From Candidatus Ratteibacteria bacterium (GTDB lineage: Bacteria; Ratteibacteria; UBA8468; MWAK01), in contig JBAZEZ010000005.1 in assembly GCA_041653615.1 (NCBI GenBank), positions 23,289-87,288 on the forward strand: a stretch of DNA of 64,000 nucleotides, given 5' to 3'. Shown here piece by piece: positions 2,431 through 62,103 of this stretch. Numbering within the stretch: position 1 is the stretch's first letter; each line of letters begins with the position of its first letter. Position numbers and translations under genes: made by a program. The notes below the pieces were generated by a model. That model had not been told where the DNA came from, searched no databases, and saw nothing but the letters and a program-made list of their open reading frames with translations.

Positions 2431-3612
2431 ATGCCAAAAAGAAGGTTTATTGTCCATTTGGACATGGATGCTTTTTTCGCCGCCATTGAACAGCGGGATA
2501 ACCCGGATTTACGCGGCCGTCCGGTGGTTATCGGTGCCGACCCGAAGGCCGGTAAAGGCCGGGGTGTGGTATCCACCTGCTCGTACGAAGCCCGAAAATT
2601 CGGCATTCATTCCGCCATGCCTATTTCTACCGCCTACCAAAAATGTCCCCAGGCCGTTTTCTTAGAGCCGGATATGGAAAAATACAGCGGCGTTTCCGAC
2701 CGGATAATGGAAATTTTTTATGCTTTTACCCATGCCGTGGAACCGGTGAGCGTTGACGAGGCGTTTTTAGATATAAGCGACACCTATATTCATTTCGGGA
2801 CCCCGCCGCAAACCTGTTTATTAATCAAATCGCGGATAAAAGAAGTCACGGGATTAACCGCTTCAATCGGTTTGGCTCCGAACAAGCTGGCGGCTAAAAT
2901 CGCTTCCGAAATCAACAAGCCCGACGGCATGGTGGAGGTTACGCCGGAAAACCTGCTTGCTTTTCTGCGGCCCCTGGATTTGAAAAAGATTTGGGGCCTG
3001 GGTGAGAAGAGCCGGCTTATTTTGAATAAGGCAGGGATTAAGACCATCGGAGAACTCGCCGACCGGAACATCCGGGAAATAGTCGCCCTGTTCGGTAAAA
3101 CAGGCGCTTATTTCTGGCAACTGGCCAACGGCATCGATGAACGGGAAGTAGAATCGGGAACCGAAGCCAAGTCAATCAGCAATGAATTTACTTTCGACGA
3201 GGATACTTCGGCTGTTCCGGAAATCAGGGCCGCTTTGCTTTCGCTTTGCGAAAGAGTGTCAAGCCGTTTGCGGCAGGCCGGCTGCAAGGGCAAGACTATC
3301 ACTTTAAAGATAAGGTTTGCCGATTTTGAAACGTTTACCAGGGCGGTCACGATTAAAGAATCGACTAATTCCGTGGACATGCTTTACCGGAAAATCAAGC
3401 TGTTGGCGGATGGTTTTTCAATCAAAAGGAAAAGGGTGCGGCTGGTCGGGGTGAAGGTTTCCGGCCTCCTTCCTTTGGATATCCAGGGGATTCTTTTCAA
3501 ATCAGAGAGTGAGAATCGTTCTGAAAAGTTGTATCAGGCGATAGACGAAATCAGGGAGAAATTCGGCTATGATTCCATCTATCGGTCAAGTACCGGAATC
3601 ACCCGCAAATAA
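2431..3612 (+). CDS. dinB: DNA polymerase IV (Y-family translesion polymerase)
   Basis: The N-terminus MPKRRFIVHLDMDAFFAAIEQRDNPDLRGRPVVIG is a canonical DinB/UmuC start. The 393-aa length fits. Confidence 0.9.
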   Translation: MPKRRFIVHLDMDAFFAAIEQRDNPDLRGRPVVIGADPKAGKGRGVVSTCSYEARKFGIHSAMPISTAYQKCPQAVFLEPDMEKYSGVSDRIMEIFYAFTHAVEPVSVDEAFLDISDTYIHFGTPPQTCLLIKSRIKEVTGLTASIGLAPNKLAAKIASEINKPDGMVEVTPENLLAFLRPLDLKKIWGLGEKSRLILNKAGIKTIGELADRNIREIVALFGKTGAYFWQLANGIDEREVESGTEAKSISNEFTFDEDTSAVPEIRAALLSLCERVSSRLRQAGCKGKTITLKIRFADFETFTRAVTIKESTNSVDMLYRKIKLLADGFSIKRKRVRLVGVKVSGLLPLDIQGILFKSESENRSEKLYQAIDEIREKFGYDSIYRSSTGITRK

Positions 3613-4476
3613 TTTCGATTCGGTAAAAGAGATTATCCATGTCGGGTCAACCGGTTTCCCCTGCAAGTAAACGCCGAAATGAAGGTGCGGTCCGGTAGAC
3701 CAGCCGGTGTTGCCCACTTCGGCAATGACTTCATCCTGTTTTACCGTATCCCCGGCCTGTTTAAAGATTTTGGACAGGTGAAAATAACAACTGACCACTC
3801 CCTGCCCGTGGTCGAGAATCAGAAGGTTGCCGTAGATATTAAAATTGCGCCCGCTTAAAATGACTCTTCCTGAATTCGCGGCCTGAACCGGCGTGCCTTC
3901 CGGAGCATCAAGGTCGATTCCCCAGTGGTAGGAACTGTAGGTTTCCAGGTCGCGTTTGAGGCCAAATTCGGTAGTGATTTCACCCCGGAGCGGTCCATAA
4001 AACGGCTGATTCCAATATTTTTTGGAGTCCCGGTGATTGATAGCGGCCAGGACTTTTTTCTGTTGCTTGGAAATGGATGGTTGCGCTTTTCTCATGTTGC
4101 GGCTGGCCTTACCCAGGAATACCGTTCTTATCTCCCTTGGAGTTACGTTCACTAAGGAAGAATGTTTTTCTTCCGGTTCGGCCGGAGACGTTTTTTCCAC
4201 AACCAGTTCTCTTTCTCCGGCGGTTTTAATGCCCAGGGGCAGCAAGATTTTCCAGACGCCTTTTGAGACCGGAAAAGGTTTATATATTTTATGTTCAAAG
4301 AGAACTTGGTATTTGTTTTCCGGATTTCCTTTAATCTGGAGTAAAAAACCTTCCCCGGCAGTTGGGTTTTCCGGCAATGTTCGGAGGGTAAACGCCTGCA
4401 GTTGAGATACGATTAACTGGCATCCTAAAAATAAGATAAGGGAAGAAAGGTTCCGGCCGAAAGACGGTGGTTTCAT
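3586..4476 (-). CDS. M23 family (LytM-domain) metallopeptidase
   Basis: The C-terminal HWGIDLDA...NTGWSTGPHLHFGVY motifs are M23 signatures. The likely start is MKPPSFGRNLSSLILFLGC at 4476, followed by a signal/TM segment. The longer ORF-track start at 4746 overlaps the upstream gene and is rejected. Confidence 0.75.
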   Translation of the reverse strand: MKPPSFGRNLSSLILFLGCQLIVSQLQAFTLRTLPENPTAGEGFLLQIKGNPENKYQVLFEHKIYKPFPVSKGVWKILLPLGIKTAGERELVVEKTSPAEPEEKHSSLVNVTPREIRTVFLGKASRNMRKAQPSISKQQKKVLAAINHRDSKKYWNQPFYGPLRGEITTEFGLKRDLETYSSYHWGIDLDAPEGTPVQAANSGRVILSGRNFNIYGNLLILDHGQGVVSCYFHLSKIFKQAGDTVKQDEVIAEVGNTGWSTGPHLHFGVYLQGKPVDPTWIISFTESKLFAGDSGT

Positions 4477-4994
4477 ACGGTCGGGCGGTTTGCCTGGTCT
4501 ATCTGGGCGGAGAGGAGATTTTTGACTTCCCGCGGGCGGGAAATGTTTTTCCAGGCGCAGGCCGAGTTTTCGGTGCCGGCGGTTGTGATGAAGATGTCGC
4601 CGCAGCCGGTCAACCGCTGGCTGATGCTGATGATAACCCGGATGTCCTGAATCCGTGAAAGCGGGGTTTCGTAAAGGTCCTTGGCGATTATGCCTTGGTG
4701 CCGGAACAGGCGGCGGTTGGTAAAACCATAGATGGTTTTTTGCCAACGCAGGAGGTGAATCAAGAAGAAGATAACCGCGGCGGATATCAAGACCGCGCCG
4801 ATTGGTTTTACGCGGGCATAGGTGCGGGTGTAATAGGTTAAGACTATGCCGCCAATCAGAAGGATTAGGCTGACGACGGCCGGTTGGAAGAGAAAATAGA
4901 ATTTCTGGGGTCGACCGGCGAAAATGACTTGTTCGCCGGGTTCAAGCATCCCGGCCGGGATTATGCCTGAGTAATCACGGGTTTTTTTATCCAT
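4473..4994 (-). CDS. bacterial PH-domain (DUF304/bPH_2, YdbS/YdbT-like) membrane protein
   Basis: Two TM helices are followed by the ...GIIAKDLYETPLSRIQDIRV motif typical of bPH_2. Its stop overlaps the M23 start by 4 nt, indicating an operon. Confidence 0.5.
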   Translation of the reverse strand: MDKKTRDYSGIIPAGMLEPGEQVIFAGRPQKFYFLFQPAVVSLILLIGGIVLTYYTRTYARVKPIGAVLISAAVIFFLIHLLRWQKTIYGFTNRRLFRHQGIIAKDLYETPLSRIQDIRVIISISQRLTGCGDIFITTAGTENSACAWKNISRPREVKNLLSAQIDQANRPTV

Positions 4995-9592: not shown

Positions 9593-9889
9593 ATGTCAAC
9601 AATTGACATAACCGTTGCCCACTGCTTTTCCCAGGACGAAGCCCTCCGGCGCACTCGCGGCTTATTGGAAAGAATACAAAAACAATTTGCCGGTGCAATT
9701 AACGACCTTCAACAGGAATGGAATGGAAACACCGGCACGTTCGGTTTTTCCGTGATGGGGTTGTCCATATCCGGAAAACTGTACGTGGAGCCGTCCGAAG
9801 TAAAACTTACAGCCGACCTTCCTTTCGCGGCGGTCTTCTTTAAAGATAAAATTGAGTCGGTTATCCGGGAACAGTTGGAGAATTTATAA
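9593..9889 (+). CDS. small protein resembling the putative polyhydroxyalkanoic-acid system protein family
   Basis: The 98-aa ORF MSTIDITVAHCFSQDEALRRTRGLLERIQKQF... resembles that family in length and pattern. The assignment is weak and from memory. Confidence 0.3.
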   Translation: MSTIDITVAHCFSQDEALRRTRGLLERIQKQFAGAINDLQQEWNGNTGTFGFSVMGLSISGKLYVEPSEVKLTADLPFAAVFFKDKIESVIREQLENL

Positions 9890-9931
9890 ACAGTACTCCG
9901 TGACGACTGTCATTGCGAGGAGCGAAGCAAC

Positions 9932-10177
9932 GTGGCAATCCCAACCTTGGAAAACGGGTTCTTTACCAGAATCTTCGGTTCCGGCGAGACGCTTTTAAGC
10001 TTTGATACTTATCAGTTTAAAGATTACTCCAAGGTGGTTGCAACCAGATTTAACCCGGAAGAGAAGTTAAAAAGGCGGAAAGAGGTATTCCCCAAGGATT
10101 GCCAGAAAGCCTTTGAAATGGGCGCTTGCTTTGCAAAGAGGAATGGATTCATGGATTTAAGAAGCTTAAAAAGTTAA
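9932..10177 (+). CDS. hypothetical protein
   Basis: An 81-aa ORF with a GTG start and no recognisable motifs. Confidence 0.2.
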   Translation: MAIPTLENGFFTRIFGSGETLLSFDTYQFKDYSKVVATRFNPEEKLKRRKEVFPKDCQKAFEMGACFAKRNGFMDLRSLKS

Positions 10178-10221
10178 GGGACAATAAACAAGAAGTGATC
10201 GTAATTATTCCCTTTCTATAG

Positions 10222-10740
10222 GTGAAAGTGGAGGTAGATATGGAAAACGGCTTTCGATTATTATTCCAGTTTTTAGCGGCTTTAGCAACTACCTTGGCTG
10301 CCGTTGCGGCTTGGCAAGCAACAAGGGAAACTCAAAAAAAGACCGCTGCTGACATATTAATGAAGATTACAGACGCGTATGCATCTCCTGAAATGTTAAC
10401 CGGCATGAAGCTTTTAAGTGAATGGCAAAAAAACCACGGTGAAAATTTTGCCAAGGTCTTTGGCGAATTACGGAGAAGTAATTATGATGAAATTGAGCAA
10501 ATCGATAAAGCGAGAAGGCGGTTTTCCCATTATTTTCATCAGATTAGATTATTATTGGAATGTGGTTATGTAGATAAATTTTTTGTAAAGAAAACCGTGT
10601 CAAAAGAACAAGTAGAGTTTCTGCTACGAATTATAGAACCATTAGGAAAAAGCTTAAATCCTGACTATGACCAGACCACTTTTAGGACTGTTGAGGCGAT
10701 ATTTTCGAAGGAAAAAATACTGAAATATATGGGTACATAG
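10222..10740 (+). CDS. hypothetical membrane-anchored protein at the edge of the AT-rich island
   Basis: The N-terminal hydrophobic helix LLFQFLAALATTLAAVAAW is followed by a charged helical domain with no known motif. Confidence 0.4.
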   Translation: MKVEVDMENGFRLLFQFLAALATTLAAVAAWQATRETQKKTAADILMKITDAYASPEMLTGMKLLSEWQKNHGENFAKVFGELRRSNYDEIEQIDKARRRFSHYFHQIRLLLECGYVDKFFVKKTVSKEQVEFLLRIIEPLGKSLNPDYDQTTFRTVEAIFSKEKILKYMGT

Positions 10741-11013
10741 ACAGCATTTTTTCGGTTTATGTTATTCTTTAGTTAATTTTTGACCTTCACCGAAAACTTA
10801 GTTTGGAACAGTTCAGATTGATCTTTGAACGCAGAGAAGAAGTATAATTTGAAAGGTAGAAACATTAACAAGAAAAACAGTCTGGATCAGTATCAAATCG
10901 CAAACCAGGAATTAGGTTAATTTGCCCAAAAAGGTTTAAAGACATCAAAGTTTCTGATCTTAATGTAAATTCAAAACCGTGATTATAGAAAAGCGTAGAT
11001 ATTTGACTGAATT

Positions 11014-11940
11014 ATGAATATTTGGCGATTGAACGTAAGAGAGACCCAAATTGAAGAGTGTATAAGAAATCGAAGATTTGCTTTTGATACTCGTCCCAGA
11101 AACCCGGAAATCCACAGAGGAGACGTTCTTCTCCTGCAATTAGTATTAGCCGACGCTAAGAAATTCGGTAAGGAAAGTAACAGAATCGAATTTGTTCTGA
11201 TATTTGATCACTACGAAGAGGATCATGATGGAACAGCAAGCGCTTATTATTGGCCAAGGGCAGGTAAGACATGGCGCTGGATACTTTTCTGCAGTGATGT
11301 TGTACCAACCATCCCTTTTTCTCTAGAAAAACTTTCTGTTTCTGCCAACTATTTTGGTCAAACAAACCCCGTCCGGATTTTAGAAAAGGATGTAAGCAAA
11401 ATTATCCCGTATTTATTGCGCTACGCGGCCCGGCCTATAGAAGAGATCGGAAAGAAGATACACAACATTGTTGTGCATGACGCTGCGGCCGAGTCTAAGC
11501 TTTGGGCTTTGCTGCGAAATAACGATAGGATAGTTGAAGACTTCCCGGACCAGGTTGAATGGGTCACTGTTATCGAGCGGAAAGAGATAAGGCGAAATCC
11601 GGAACTCCCTATTGCACTTAAAGAGCTCTACGATTACAAGTGTCAAGTTTGCAAGGAAGATTTTAAAGGTAAACCTTATTCAGAAACCCATCACGTTATA
11701 TGGCTCTCGCGCGGCGGGGTTGACCACAGTAATAATCTAATTGTAGTCTGTCCCAACCACCATAGAATCATACACGAAACCAAGCCCGACTTTGACAGGC
11801 ACAATCTCGCTTTTGTTTATCCGAATGGTTTTCAGGAACATCTTAAACTTAAGGACCACCTTAAGGATCCGGGTTTGCTGCAGAAGATTATTGAATGGTC
11901 GTCGAAGCGTAATAAAGTAATAGGGAAAGAAAAGACGTGA
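11014..11940 (+). CDS. PUA-like (EVE/ASCH-type) N-terminal domain fused to an HNH endonuclease; candidate modification-dependent (Type IV) restriction enzyme
   Basis: The C-terminus CQVCKEDF...ETHHVIWLSRGGVDHSNNLIVVCPNHHRIIH is a classical HNH (C-x2-C...HH...N...C-x2-HH). The N-terminus MNIWRLNVRE...GDVLLL resembles EVE/PUA-like starts. It sits in a low-GC island. Confidence 0.55.
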   Translation: MNIWRLNVRETQIEECIRNRRFAFDTRPRNPEIHRGDVLLLQLVLADAKKFGKESNRIEFVLIFDHYEEDHDGTASAYYWPRAGKTWRWILFCSDVVPTIPFSLEKLSVSANYFGQTNPVRILEKDVSKIIPYLLRYAARPIEEIGKKIHNIVVHDAAAESKLWALLRNNDRIVEDFPDQVEWVTVIERKEIRRNPELPIALKELYDYKCQVCKEDFKGKPYSETHHVIWLSRGGVDHSNNLIVVCPNHHRIIHETKPDFDRHNLAFVYPNGFQEHLKLKDHLKDPGLLQKIIEWSSKRNKVIGKEKT

Positions 11941-11955
11941 ACGGGTTGGTAATTC

Positions 11956-12911
11956 ATGTTCCCGAGTGAATTTCTTATACCGGCGAAATATATGGATGAT
12001 AACAAAGTAAGGCTCGCGGCGTTCAATTGGTTGGAAAAACAGGTAAAGATTCACGGAGATACGCTTCCGCGGCAACTCTTAGTGGATGGTTTTGTTCTTG
12101 ATGGTCAACGAGTTCCTTTGGTGTCGGTCCAGGGTATATTTAGACCAAAGATTTTATCGGAGATTCCCATATCAATTACAACAACAGCTAAAGGACCTTA
12201 CAAAGATCGGATGAGTTCGGAAGGTCATATCATTTATAGTTACCGCGGTACTAATCTGCAGCACCCTGAAAATATCGGTCTTCGCAAAGCCTTGGAGCGC
12301 GGAATTCCCCTTATATATTTCCATGGGCTTATTCCCGGGAAATATTTTGCGGCTTGGCCTGTTTATATTGTCGGTGATAATCCGCACGATTTGGAGTTCA
12401 GTGTTCTTGTGGATGACAAAATTTATATTAATAGAACAAATATCGTAAGAATAGGCGAAAATCTTTTAGTTCGCGACCAAGAAGAAGAGGGAAGGAGAGA
12501 ATACATCACGACCATGGTAAGACAGCGCTTGCACCAGCGTGGGTTTCGGGAGCGCGTGCTTGAAGCATATCATAACCAGTGTGCCATGTGTCATCTGCGT
12601 CATGTTGAACTTCTGGACGCTGCGCATATTATTTCCGACGGGGAACCGGGAGGCGAACCCGTGGTGAGTACGGAATATCTCTATGCAAATTGCACCATGC
12701 AGTATTTGATAACTTTTTCCTCGGCGTTCGACCCGATTTTGTCATAGAGGTTAGAAAGGACATTCTTGACGAAGAAGATGGACCGATGCTTATGCATGGA
12801 CTAAAGGGTCTTCACGGAAATTATCTTTGGACACCAAAGTCTTTAGATGTTAAGCCCAGCATTGTAAATCTTAAGATCAGGTATGAGAGGTTTATAATAG
12901 GACCGAATTAG
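11956..12911 (+). pseudogene. SRA-like N-terminal domain fused to an HNH_2 nuclease (Type IV restriction-like), disrupted by a 1-nt frameshift near 12670
   Basis: Frame 1 reads ...RGFRERVLEAYHNQCAMCHLRHVELLDAAHIISDGEPGGEPVVS. The HNH_2 motif continues in frame 0 as GISLCKLHHAVFDNFFLGVRPDFVIEV...LMHGL. The sequence agt-ac-gga appears where agt-aac-gga (S-N-G) is expected, so one A is missing. Confidence 0.55.
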
Positions 12912-12935: not shown

Positions 12936-13433
12936 TTATGGGTAGTTTAACTGGCAGGCGGGTTTAATGCCGCGTTTTTCGTAATACTGCTGGTGGTACT
13001 CTTCGGCCGGGTAGAATTCCTGCGCGGGAACGATTTTTGTGACTATCGGGCTCTTAAACTTTCCTGATTTTTCAAGTTTTTGTTTAGATAACTGAGCTAT
13101 TTTTTCCTGTTCCGGAGTATGGTAGAAGATGACGGAATGGTATTGCGGCCCCATATCCGGGCCCTGGCGGTTTGGGGTGGTTGGGTCGTGCATTTTCCAG
13201 AAGAGGTCCAGGAGTTGCTGGTAAGATACTTGGCTTGGGTCGTATTCCAACTGCACAACCTCCGCGTGTCCGGTCTTTTTGGTTGAGACCTCTTCGTAGG
13301 TGGGATTTTTCAGGGTTCCGCCCATGAAGCCGACCGTAGTTTTGACCACCCCTTTTAATTGGCGGAACGTTGATTCCGTACCCCAAAAGCAGCCGGAGCC
13401 GAAAGTTGCCGTTTCAAAAGGCGCCGATTTCAT
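12936..13433 (-). CDS. msrA: peptide methionine sulfoxide reductase MsrA
   Basis: [13 protein letters not shown] is the MsrA active-site motif (GCFWG). Confidence 0.9.
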
Positions 13434-61934: not shown

Positions 61935-62103
61935 CTCAAAACGGCGGGGAGGGAAATAGCTGCCCGGTGAGGATTCGGCGGTTTCGGCTTCACCGCGCCT
62001 CAACTCGGCCACCCGCTGGCAACGTTCCCTATTCGGTCGCCTCGCCTGACTTCGCTCCCCTCGAATCCTCAATACCCGGGCTTTAGGCGGGATTAAAATT
62101 GGG

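Follow-up and report, generated by a model that had tools for sequence, protein, structure and literature searches.

Results

Gene content and composition of the islet

We analyzed a 64,000-nucleotide stretch of a Candidatus Ratteibacteria genome (contig JBAZEZ010000005.1, positions 23,289 to 87,288; hereafter, the window), in which an AT-rich islet at positions 10222-12911 carries three genes on the plus strand. They are a gene for a small membrane-anchored protein (gene 1, 10240..10740), an intact gene that fuses a PUA/EVE-like domain to an HNH nuclease (gene 2, 11014..11940) and a frameshifted gene that fuses an SRA-like domain to an HNH_2 nuclease (gene 3, 11992..12911). An original prediction, made from the sequence of the window, had proposed that the three genes could together form a composite anti-phage module. 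The data presented below make it probable, instead, that the islet holds, one after the other, two Type IV (modification-dependent) restriction endonucleases, each made of a single protein and independent of the other, that only the first is functional, and that gene 1 was acquired separately.

The drop in GC content that had drawn attention to this region was confirmed. The islet has 40.9% GC, against 50.1% for the whole window, and forms its low point at this scale, falling in the lowest 1% of 2.7-kb windows, the ten lowest of which all begin within 9751-10401. The depression is greatest across gene 1 (37%) and the spacer between genes 1 and 2 (10741..11013, without strand; 273 bp, 31.1% GC), which is AT-rich as predicted, with genes 2 and 3 just moderately low (43% each). 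GC content at third codon positions (GC3) is 35% in gene 1, 43% in gene 2 and 38-42% in gene 3, and ranges from 49 to 61% in the flanking genes. The spacer presumably carries the promoter of genes 2 and 3. Promoter, terminator, Rfam and repeat searches of the spacer gave nothing significant, the counts of promoters and terminators around the islet being those expected from shuffled sequences.

Gene 2 encodes a PUA/EVE-like-HNH protein

Gene 2 is an intact open reading frame (ORF) of 308 aa and a candidate stand-alone Type IV restriction endonuclease. Its C-terminal part contains an HNH beta-beta-alpha-Me core (residues 206-256; 11629..11781, plus strand) that matches PF01844 with 29.7 bits against a cutoff of 21.4. 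The catalytic and zinc-binding residues of this core are intact (C210, C213, HH226-227, N241, C246-P-N-H-H250 and H254), and C210, C213, H226, H227, N241, C246, H249, H250 and H254 are invariant or nearly so in the alignment of the gene 2 family (A1). The closest solved HNH structure is that of EcoKMcrA (6ghc), found with an expectation value (E) of 5.5e-8 when the single sequence was the query and of 8.9e-10 when a profile was used. A word-indexed search recovered 143 homologues, several of them named 'McrA' by the Joint Genome Institute. The family also shares a C-terminal tail, FDR..L.F.YPNG..E.L.L.DHL. In its N-terminal half, W80, P81 and W87 are invariant and W89 is almost so. Compared with its nearest relative, in locus L005, gene 2 shows a ratio of nonsynonymous to synonymous substitution rates (dN/dS) of 0.09 and zero departures from the family-invariant residues, revealing purifying selection. 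Two family members in alignment A1, P0087 and P0109, keep the reader domain and have the catalytic HH and the downstream His residues replaced (ADTR..., CPNHRAII / CPNHNAII), and they may be readers with a dead nuclease.

The AlphaFold2 model of gene 2 (predicted local distance difference test, pLDDT, 90.9; predicted template modeling score, pTM, 0.86) is composed of a beta-rich region (residues 1 to ~135), helices at 143-176 and the HNH domain with a C-terminal extension to residue 308. The beta-rich region (11014..11418, plus strand) is predicted to adopt a PUA-superfamily (EVE/ASCH/YTH-like) reader fold. In the fold search it scored 12.7 with PH1033 (EVE), 11.3 with ASCH, 10.8 with the N-domain of T. 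gammatolerans McrB bound to 5-methylcytosine (5mC) DNA, 10.5 with the EVE-HNH endonuclease VcaM4I, about 10 with YTH domains and 8.1 with TagI. The prediction of a PUA/EVE-like domain fused to an HNH nuclease at 11014-11940 was well founded for both halves of the protein.

These scores bear on what the protein may read. YTH domains, which are readers of N6-methyladenosine in RNA, and ASCH domains score nearly as high as the DNA-binding EVE and McrB N-domains, and gene 2 finds no sequence-level placement in a DNA-reading subfamily; the PUA-like domain might thus read modified RNA, and the protein act on RNA or as a toxin rather than in DNA restriction. We find this very unlikely, since the nuclease is closest to those of EcoKMcrA and TagI, which are DNA restriction enzymes, the three-part architecture equals that of VcaM4I, and the PUA-superfamily-HNH fusions tested so far cleave modified DNA (PMC6765204; PMC7641849). 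The YTH-like and ASCH-like similarity nevertheless leaves N6-methyladenine, or even RNA, as minority possibilities for what the gene 2 protein reads.

Gene 3 was interrupted by a frameshift in its catalytic motif

The original prediction described 11956-12911 as a single gene for an SRA-like domain fused to HNH_2. The architecture was upheld, but not the single gene: the region comprises two ORFs in different frames, 11956-12747 (263 aa) and 12690-12911 (73 aa). We place the gene 3 pseudogene at 11992..12911 (plus strand), with an in-frame upstream ATG also at 11956. Alignment to the intact DNA of two related loci (L004 and L005) revealed a 1-nt deletion between 12669 and 12670, where the window reads AGT-ACGGA and the intact relative CGCAACGGC. 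The missing A belongs to the codon (AAC) of the invariant Asn in the catalytic motif V-x-N-G-[IL]-x-L-C-K-L-H-H of the HNH_2 core (12580..12728, plus strand), so that the lesion separates the C-x-x-C and the AAHI histidine, on its upstream side, from N-G, Cys and HH, which follow in a different frame. Restoring one base gives a product of 306-318 aa that aligns over the full length with ~310-aa homologues and matches PF13391 (HNH_2) with 32.8 bits against a cutoff of 21; neither of the unrepaired fragments matches any HNH model. An intact HNH nuclease domain is therefore found only in the relatives of gene 3. In the NCBI annotation gene 3 appears solely as a 251-aa hypothetical protein (WC081_04215).

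The SRA-like reader domain of gene 3 (~145 residues; 11992..12426, plus strand) lies wholly upstream of the deletion and is intact. Its structure was read from the model of an intact homologue, P0121, which is 81% identical and in which the N-domain has a pLDDT >90 and the HNH half is poorly modeled. The top matches of the N-domain in two independent fold searches were solely SRA-type 5mC readers and SRA nucleases, which points to an SRA-like reader fold. The family is very large, with 4756 homologues. At the C-terminal half alone, the repaired protein also matches NF045808 (53.3 bits against a cutoff of 180, E 2.2e-14), over profile positions 158-266 of 284.

The dN/dS between gene 3 and its intact relative is 0.10, the same before and after the lesion, and a leave-one-out count found two departures at invariant positions, a number inside the range of intact homologues. 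Both results suggest that gene 3 was under constraint until recently; a longer history of decay finds no support in them. The same undecayed state would be expected if the frameshift were an error of sequencing or assembly, or if it were bypassed by ribosomal frameshifting, and gene 3 were still functional. Such an explanation is most improbable, however. Three other samples yielded assemblies with the identical lesion (see below), the deletion site is not a long homopolymer (AA to A), and the frame changes exactly in the catalytic Asn codon. Programmed frameshifting was rejected, because the region of overlap between the two ORFs has no slippery heptamer. Gene 3 is to all appearances a recent pseudogene, whose product would be at most a reader-only fragment, and with the frameshift inside its catalytic motif just one of the two nucleases of the islet can be active.

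Gene 1 belongs to a widespread family

Gene 1 had been placed at 10222 with 172 aa. The ATG at 10240 (166 aa) is more likely its start, being preceded by a GGAGG Shine-Dalgarno sequence 5 nt upstream and shared by the NCBI annotation and three other gene calls. At the N-terminus of the protein a single hydrophobic helix spans residues ~4-27, with hydropathy on the Kyte-Doolittle scale peaking at 1.87 over residues 7-25 and 4 K/R coming next; a helical soluble domain follows it. Nor is it a protein of no known family, as had been thought, since an exhaustive HMMER search recovered 593 cluster representatives at E<=1e-3, which share the conserved motifs ARRR..HYF and EPLE..NP.YD.

Matches to DUF4760 (Pfam PF15956) occur in six of 47 gene 1 relatives, all under the curated threshold, and the fusion protein P0248, at 21.8 bits, also falls short of the cutoff of 25; gene 1 of the window does not match this model at all. 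We found no match of gene 1 in PADLOC, NCBIfam or the PDB, or among annotated phages and plasmids. From these profile matches, gene 1 appears as a member of a widespread uncharacterized family that is weakly DUF4760-like. In the five longer contexts that were recovered, which are mutually unrelated, its relatives are solitary genes. Two relatives are rare fusions: P0334 (290 aa) has an N-terminal staphylococcal nuclease (SNase) domain and P0250 (424 aa; L059 7001-8275) a C-terminal DUF7662, the P0250 gene adjoining a faint NucS-like gene and a Y1 transposase.

Boundaries and surroundings of the islet

As predicted, the islet ends at the convergent housekeeping gene msrA (12936..13433, minus strand; PMSR, E 8e-67), whose stop is 24 bp away from that of gene 3 and which forms the right boundary, outside the system. 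Other genes within ~9 kb of the islet are likewise housekeeping genes. We found no hallmarks of mobility near the islet in the form of flanking direct repeats, an integrase or an Rfam family; there is no tRNA close to it, the sole one in the window being at 62100. No methyltransferase gene adjoins the nucleases, and the window has no convincing motif of a C5-cytosine methyltransferase (a single regular-expression match, which is atypical), the rest of the genome not having been searched for cytosine methyltransferases. In the low-GC left flank, an 81-codon ORF (9932-10177, plus strand) lies between a polyhydroxyalkanoate-granule gene and gene 1. It was called as a gene in one of three other assemblies, has no family match in any library and may be coding or not.

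The whole trio is kept in four assemblies of the same population, namely the window and three from other samples (loci L001, L002 and L003; samples ERZ27247358, SRR6484325 and SRR18595300). The four represent essentially one strain, with zero single-nucleotide polymorphisms (SNPs) within the islet; the SNPs of the other assemblies relative to the window are confined to 1948-2326, outside it. L001, a 16-kb contig, is otherwise identical to the window, and all of its 28 differences fall in this 380-bp stretch at the L001 end, which may be the hypervariable end of a gene or else a chimeric end of the contig.

Conservation of the three genes in relatives

The nearest relatives of genes 2 and 3 (80% and 81% identity, respectively) lie next to each other in L005 and also in a related metagenome-assembled genome (MAG), where they are divided over two contig ends (L004 and L006). 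In both lineages with the pair, the two genes are 6-51 bp apart on the same strand, and in the relative the pair has 46% GC versus 52% in its flanks. Gene 1 is absent from the nearest relative's locus, and the blastn match to L005 begins at window position 11009, 5 bp upstream of gene 2.

Right after the gene 3 relative there is a 26-codon remnant of msrA (L005 3100-3177; L004 1114-1191, minus strand), 62% identical to residues 102-127 of the window msrA (E 4e-5). This remnant shows that the junction between gene 3 and msrA is ancestral and that msrA was later lost there in the relative, and therefore that genes 2 and 3 were not inserted recently as a pair. ThiI is found ~4 kb from the pair in both genomes; together with the msrA remnant, it indicates that the pair is an old resident whose surroundings were reshuffled. 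Between the nuclease pair and ThiI, L004 holds an AbiEii toxin gene and an upstream 202-aa gene (3239-4485, minus strand), suggesting that the site is a variable accessory or defense spot in this lineage.

Beyond the closest lineage, the genes part company. A flank analysis of full-length gene 2 loci from a genome scan showed that 22 of 23 have neither a relative of gene 3 nor one of gene 1 within 6 kb, and a gene 1 profile search of 48 gene 2 loci from the same scan returned nothing. Likewise, none of 80 gene 3 loci from metagenomes holds a full-length gene 2 or a gene 1 relative, the latter searched by single-sequence tblastn. After all-against-all clustering of the flanking ORFs of 24 gene 2 loci (the 23 full-length ones plus the window), no neighbor family was common to more than two, which suggests that gene 2 is autonomous. 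The gene 2/gene 3 pair is conserved, then, in the closest lineage only, and neither family has a conserved partner.

These patterns decide against the composite module of the original prediction, in which the membrane protein would partner both nucleases. The three genes do share a strand and one low-GC stretch, and the trio is kept in four assemblies of the population, but these amount to essentially one strain with an SNP-free islet. Gene 1 is missing beside genes 2 and 3 in the nearest distinct relative, where the homology starts just before gene 2; its relatives are absent from the gene 2 and gene 3 loci searched and stand alone elsewhere; and its GC3 is below that of both nuclease genes, from which the 273-bp spacer separates gene 1. 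The components do not co-occur across lineages as those of a PADLOC multi-gene system would, and PADLOC gave only generic HNH/mREase_IV matches to the nuclease domains of the trio and nothing for gene 1. This lack of co-occurrence largely refutes the composite module, which we now hold to be extremely unlikely. Gene 1 is probably outside the nuclease unit.

Tandem reader-HNH pairs among gene 3 relatives

A second, different HNH_2-type gene lies nearby in 17 of the 80 gene 3 relatives (metagenome loci L063-L142), and in 11 of these 17 it is on the same strand, at a gap of 12-103 bp. Examples are L068 (1025-1957 and 2000-2890), L089 (4001-4909 and 4936-5850) and L111 (4001-4903 and 5006-5878). 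Most partners (12/17) have in common an N-domain (A6) with the signature 'VGVTD..W..FL...DEVNFWQPS...FLFKLHSP'; this domain has no PDB match and shows no relationship to the N-domain of gene 2 (hhalign probability of 0.3%). Two partners, in L111 and L114, are bona fide nucleases with a sulfur-binding domain (SBD-HNH; NF045808, 356-375 bits), and two others are SBD-like, L104p with a sub-threshold 148 bits and L121p by motif alone. In L083, finally, the partner is itself a gene 3-family member, a second copy in truncated form. No second HNH of any kind was found in 63 of the 80 loci.

A MAG from Bacillota (JAEXSP010000017.1; L048 4458-9109) has an intact gene 3 relative followed by two ORFs (116 and 168 aa, with a 4-nt overlap) that together carry a gene 2-type HNH and C-terminal tail behind a different N-terminus. 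Further on there is a 122-aa gene labeled MazG-like and an ATPase of 799 aa labeled DUF2075-like, whose C-terminus resembles LexA/S24; both labels were assigned by eye. The region looks like a defense island.

Pairs such as these raise the possibility that genes 2 and 3 work as a dual-reader pair, through cooperation or as a heteromer, in which the loss of gene 3 would cripple the unit or shift its specificity. The close, same-strand spacing of the two genes in both lineages is what such a pair would show, as are the tandem partners of the gene 3 family and the joining, in L048, of a gene 3 relative to a gene 2-type HNH; moreover, HNH Type IV enzymes are known to dimerize via their nuclease domains (PMC7897488). 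Yet a gene 3 relative is missing from nearly all full-length gene 2 loci and a second HNH from most gene 3 loci, the HNH types of the two genes differ (PF01844 versus PF13391), and characterized relatives work alone (PMC6765204). The partners are, in addition, heterogeneous (A6-type N-domain, SBD and PUA-like), a pattern that an obligate complex explains less well than the clustering of defense genes whose specificities complement each other, and such clustering may be what the recurrent tandem pairs reflect. We consider cooperation between genes 2 and 3 unlikely. The two look like autonomous single-gene systems that are neighbors by chance.

Discussion

In the interpretation that we favor, two single-protein nucleases side by side, gene 2 would be the working enzyme. 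By analogy with characterized EVE-HNH and SRA-HNH enzymes, which restrict DNA containing 5mC or 5-hydroxymethylcytosine (5hmC) and phage T4gt (PMC6765204), its target would be invading DNA and its role anti-phage defense. A modified base, most probably a cytosine substituted at position 5, would be flipped by the PUA/EVE-like domain into an aromatic pocket, and the HNH domains would dimerize and cut nearby. The host may be protected simply through the absence of that modification. Gene 3 would have been an enzyme of the TagI/ScoA3IV design, inactivated only recently by the loss of one nucleotide from its catalytic motif.

Several observations weigh against this interpretation. Residues 1-200 of gene 2 have no Pfam match at E<=0.1, including to EVE (PF01878), and none in NCBIfam, PADLOC or PHROGs, and the mREase_IV model of PADLOC covers just the HNH part of the protein. 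Repaired gene 3, for its part, has no match to Pfam SAD_SRA (PF02182), HNH_2 being its sole match at E<=1. For both reader domains, searches of Pfam, NCBIfam, PADLOC, PHROGs and the PDB with single sequences and profiles matched the HNH parts alone. The modification that gene 2 may read, and even its substrate, DNA or RNA, are suggested by analogy of fold. The check for cytosine methyltransferases covers the window alone. Finally, some room for cooperation is left by the recurrent tandem partners of the gene 3 family and by genes 2 and 3 lying side by side in the closest lineage.

A broader speculation, rather unlikely in our opinion, is that the SRA-like-HNH_2 tandem pairs could be functional dual-reader modules, either heterodimers or obligately complementary enzymes, of which the window would be a decaying example; separately, the gene 1 family could be an unrecognized single-gene defense or toxin family.

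If two single-protein nucleases are indeed what the islet holds, it leaves the current understanding of Type IV restriction unchanged, adding to the PUA/EVE-HNH and SRA-HNH designs two uncharacterized families, one of them small (gene 2, 143 homologues) and the other very large (gene 3, >4700 clusters). Such enzymes are now documented in a candidate-phylum bacterium (Ratteibacteria). They are useful as reagents for the mapping of DNA modifications, and gene 2 and the intact P0121 are reasonable cloning targets. The frameshift in gene 3 calls for caution in automated counts of defense systems, and the recurrent tandem of different reader-HNH genes may merit a systematic survey.

Comparison with known systems

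PUA/EVE-HNH and SRA-HNH fusions are established Type IV designs (PMC6765204; PMC7897488), and on this point the original prediction was right. One of its examples was less fortunate: PvuRts1I is a PD-(D/E)XK enzyme (PMC6765204) and hence a poor model for a reader-HNH fusion.

For gene 1, DUF4760 offers a resemblance in small size, the best relative and P0248 reaching E values of 2.3e-4 to 2.6e-4, all under the gathering score.

Gene 3 follows the design of the SRA-HNH enzymes TagI and ScoA3IV (Sco5333; PDB 6ghs), an SRA-like reader followed by an HNH nuclease. It differs from them in having no Pfam SRA match, an HNH_2 (PF13391) nuclease and a long C-terminal extension shared with SBD-HNH enzymes, and its copy in the window, being frameshifted, cannot be catalytic. 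With the SBD-HNH phosphorothioate-dependent endonucleases (SprMcrA, EcoWI; NF045808) gene 3 shares a homologous nuclease half, made up of the HNH_2 and C-terminal region, but its N-terminal half does not match the sulfur-binding domain, the fold search giving SRA instead.

Gene 2 has the same layout of reader, helical linker and HNH as the VcaM4I/TspA15I group of EVE-HNH enzymes (PDB 6yex; PMC7897488, PMC6765204). VcaM4I is composed of an EVE domain (1-147), a linker (148-178) and an HNH domain (179-309) through which it dimerizes; W82 and Y130 line the hydrophobic pocket that receives the flipped 5mC or 5hmC (PMC7897488). The identity of VcaM4I to gene 2 is, however, only ~11%; gene 2 has no sequence-level match to VcaM4I or to Pfam EVE, its HNH is nearer to those of EcoKMcrA (PDB 6ghc, the closest solved one) and TagI, and it has its own conserved C-terminal tail. 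Genes 2 and 3 are, in sum, new uncharacterized sequence families, unrecognized by the Pfam EVE and SRA models, that in fold and architecture belong within known Type IV designs.

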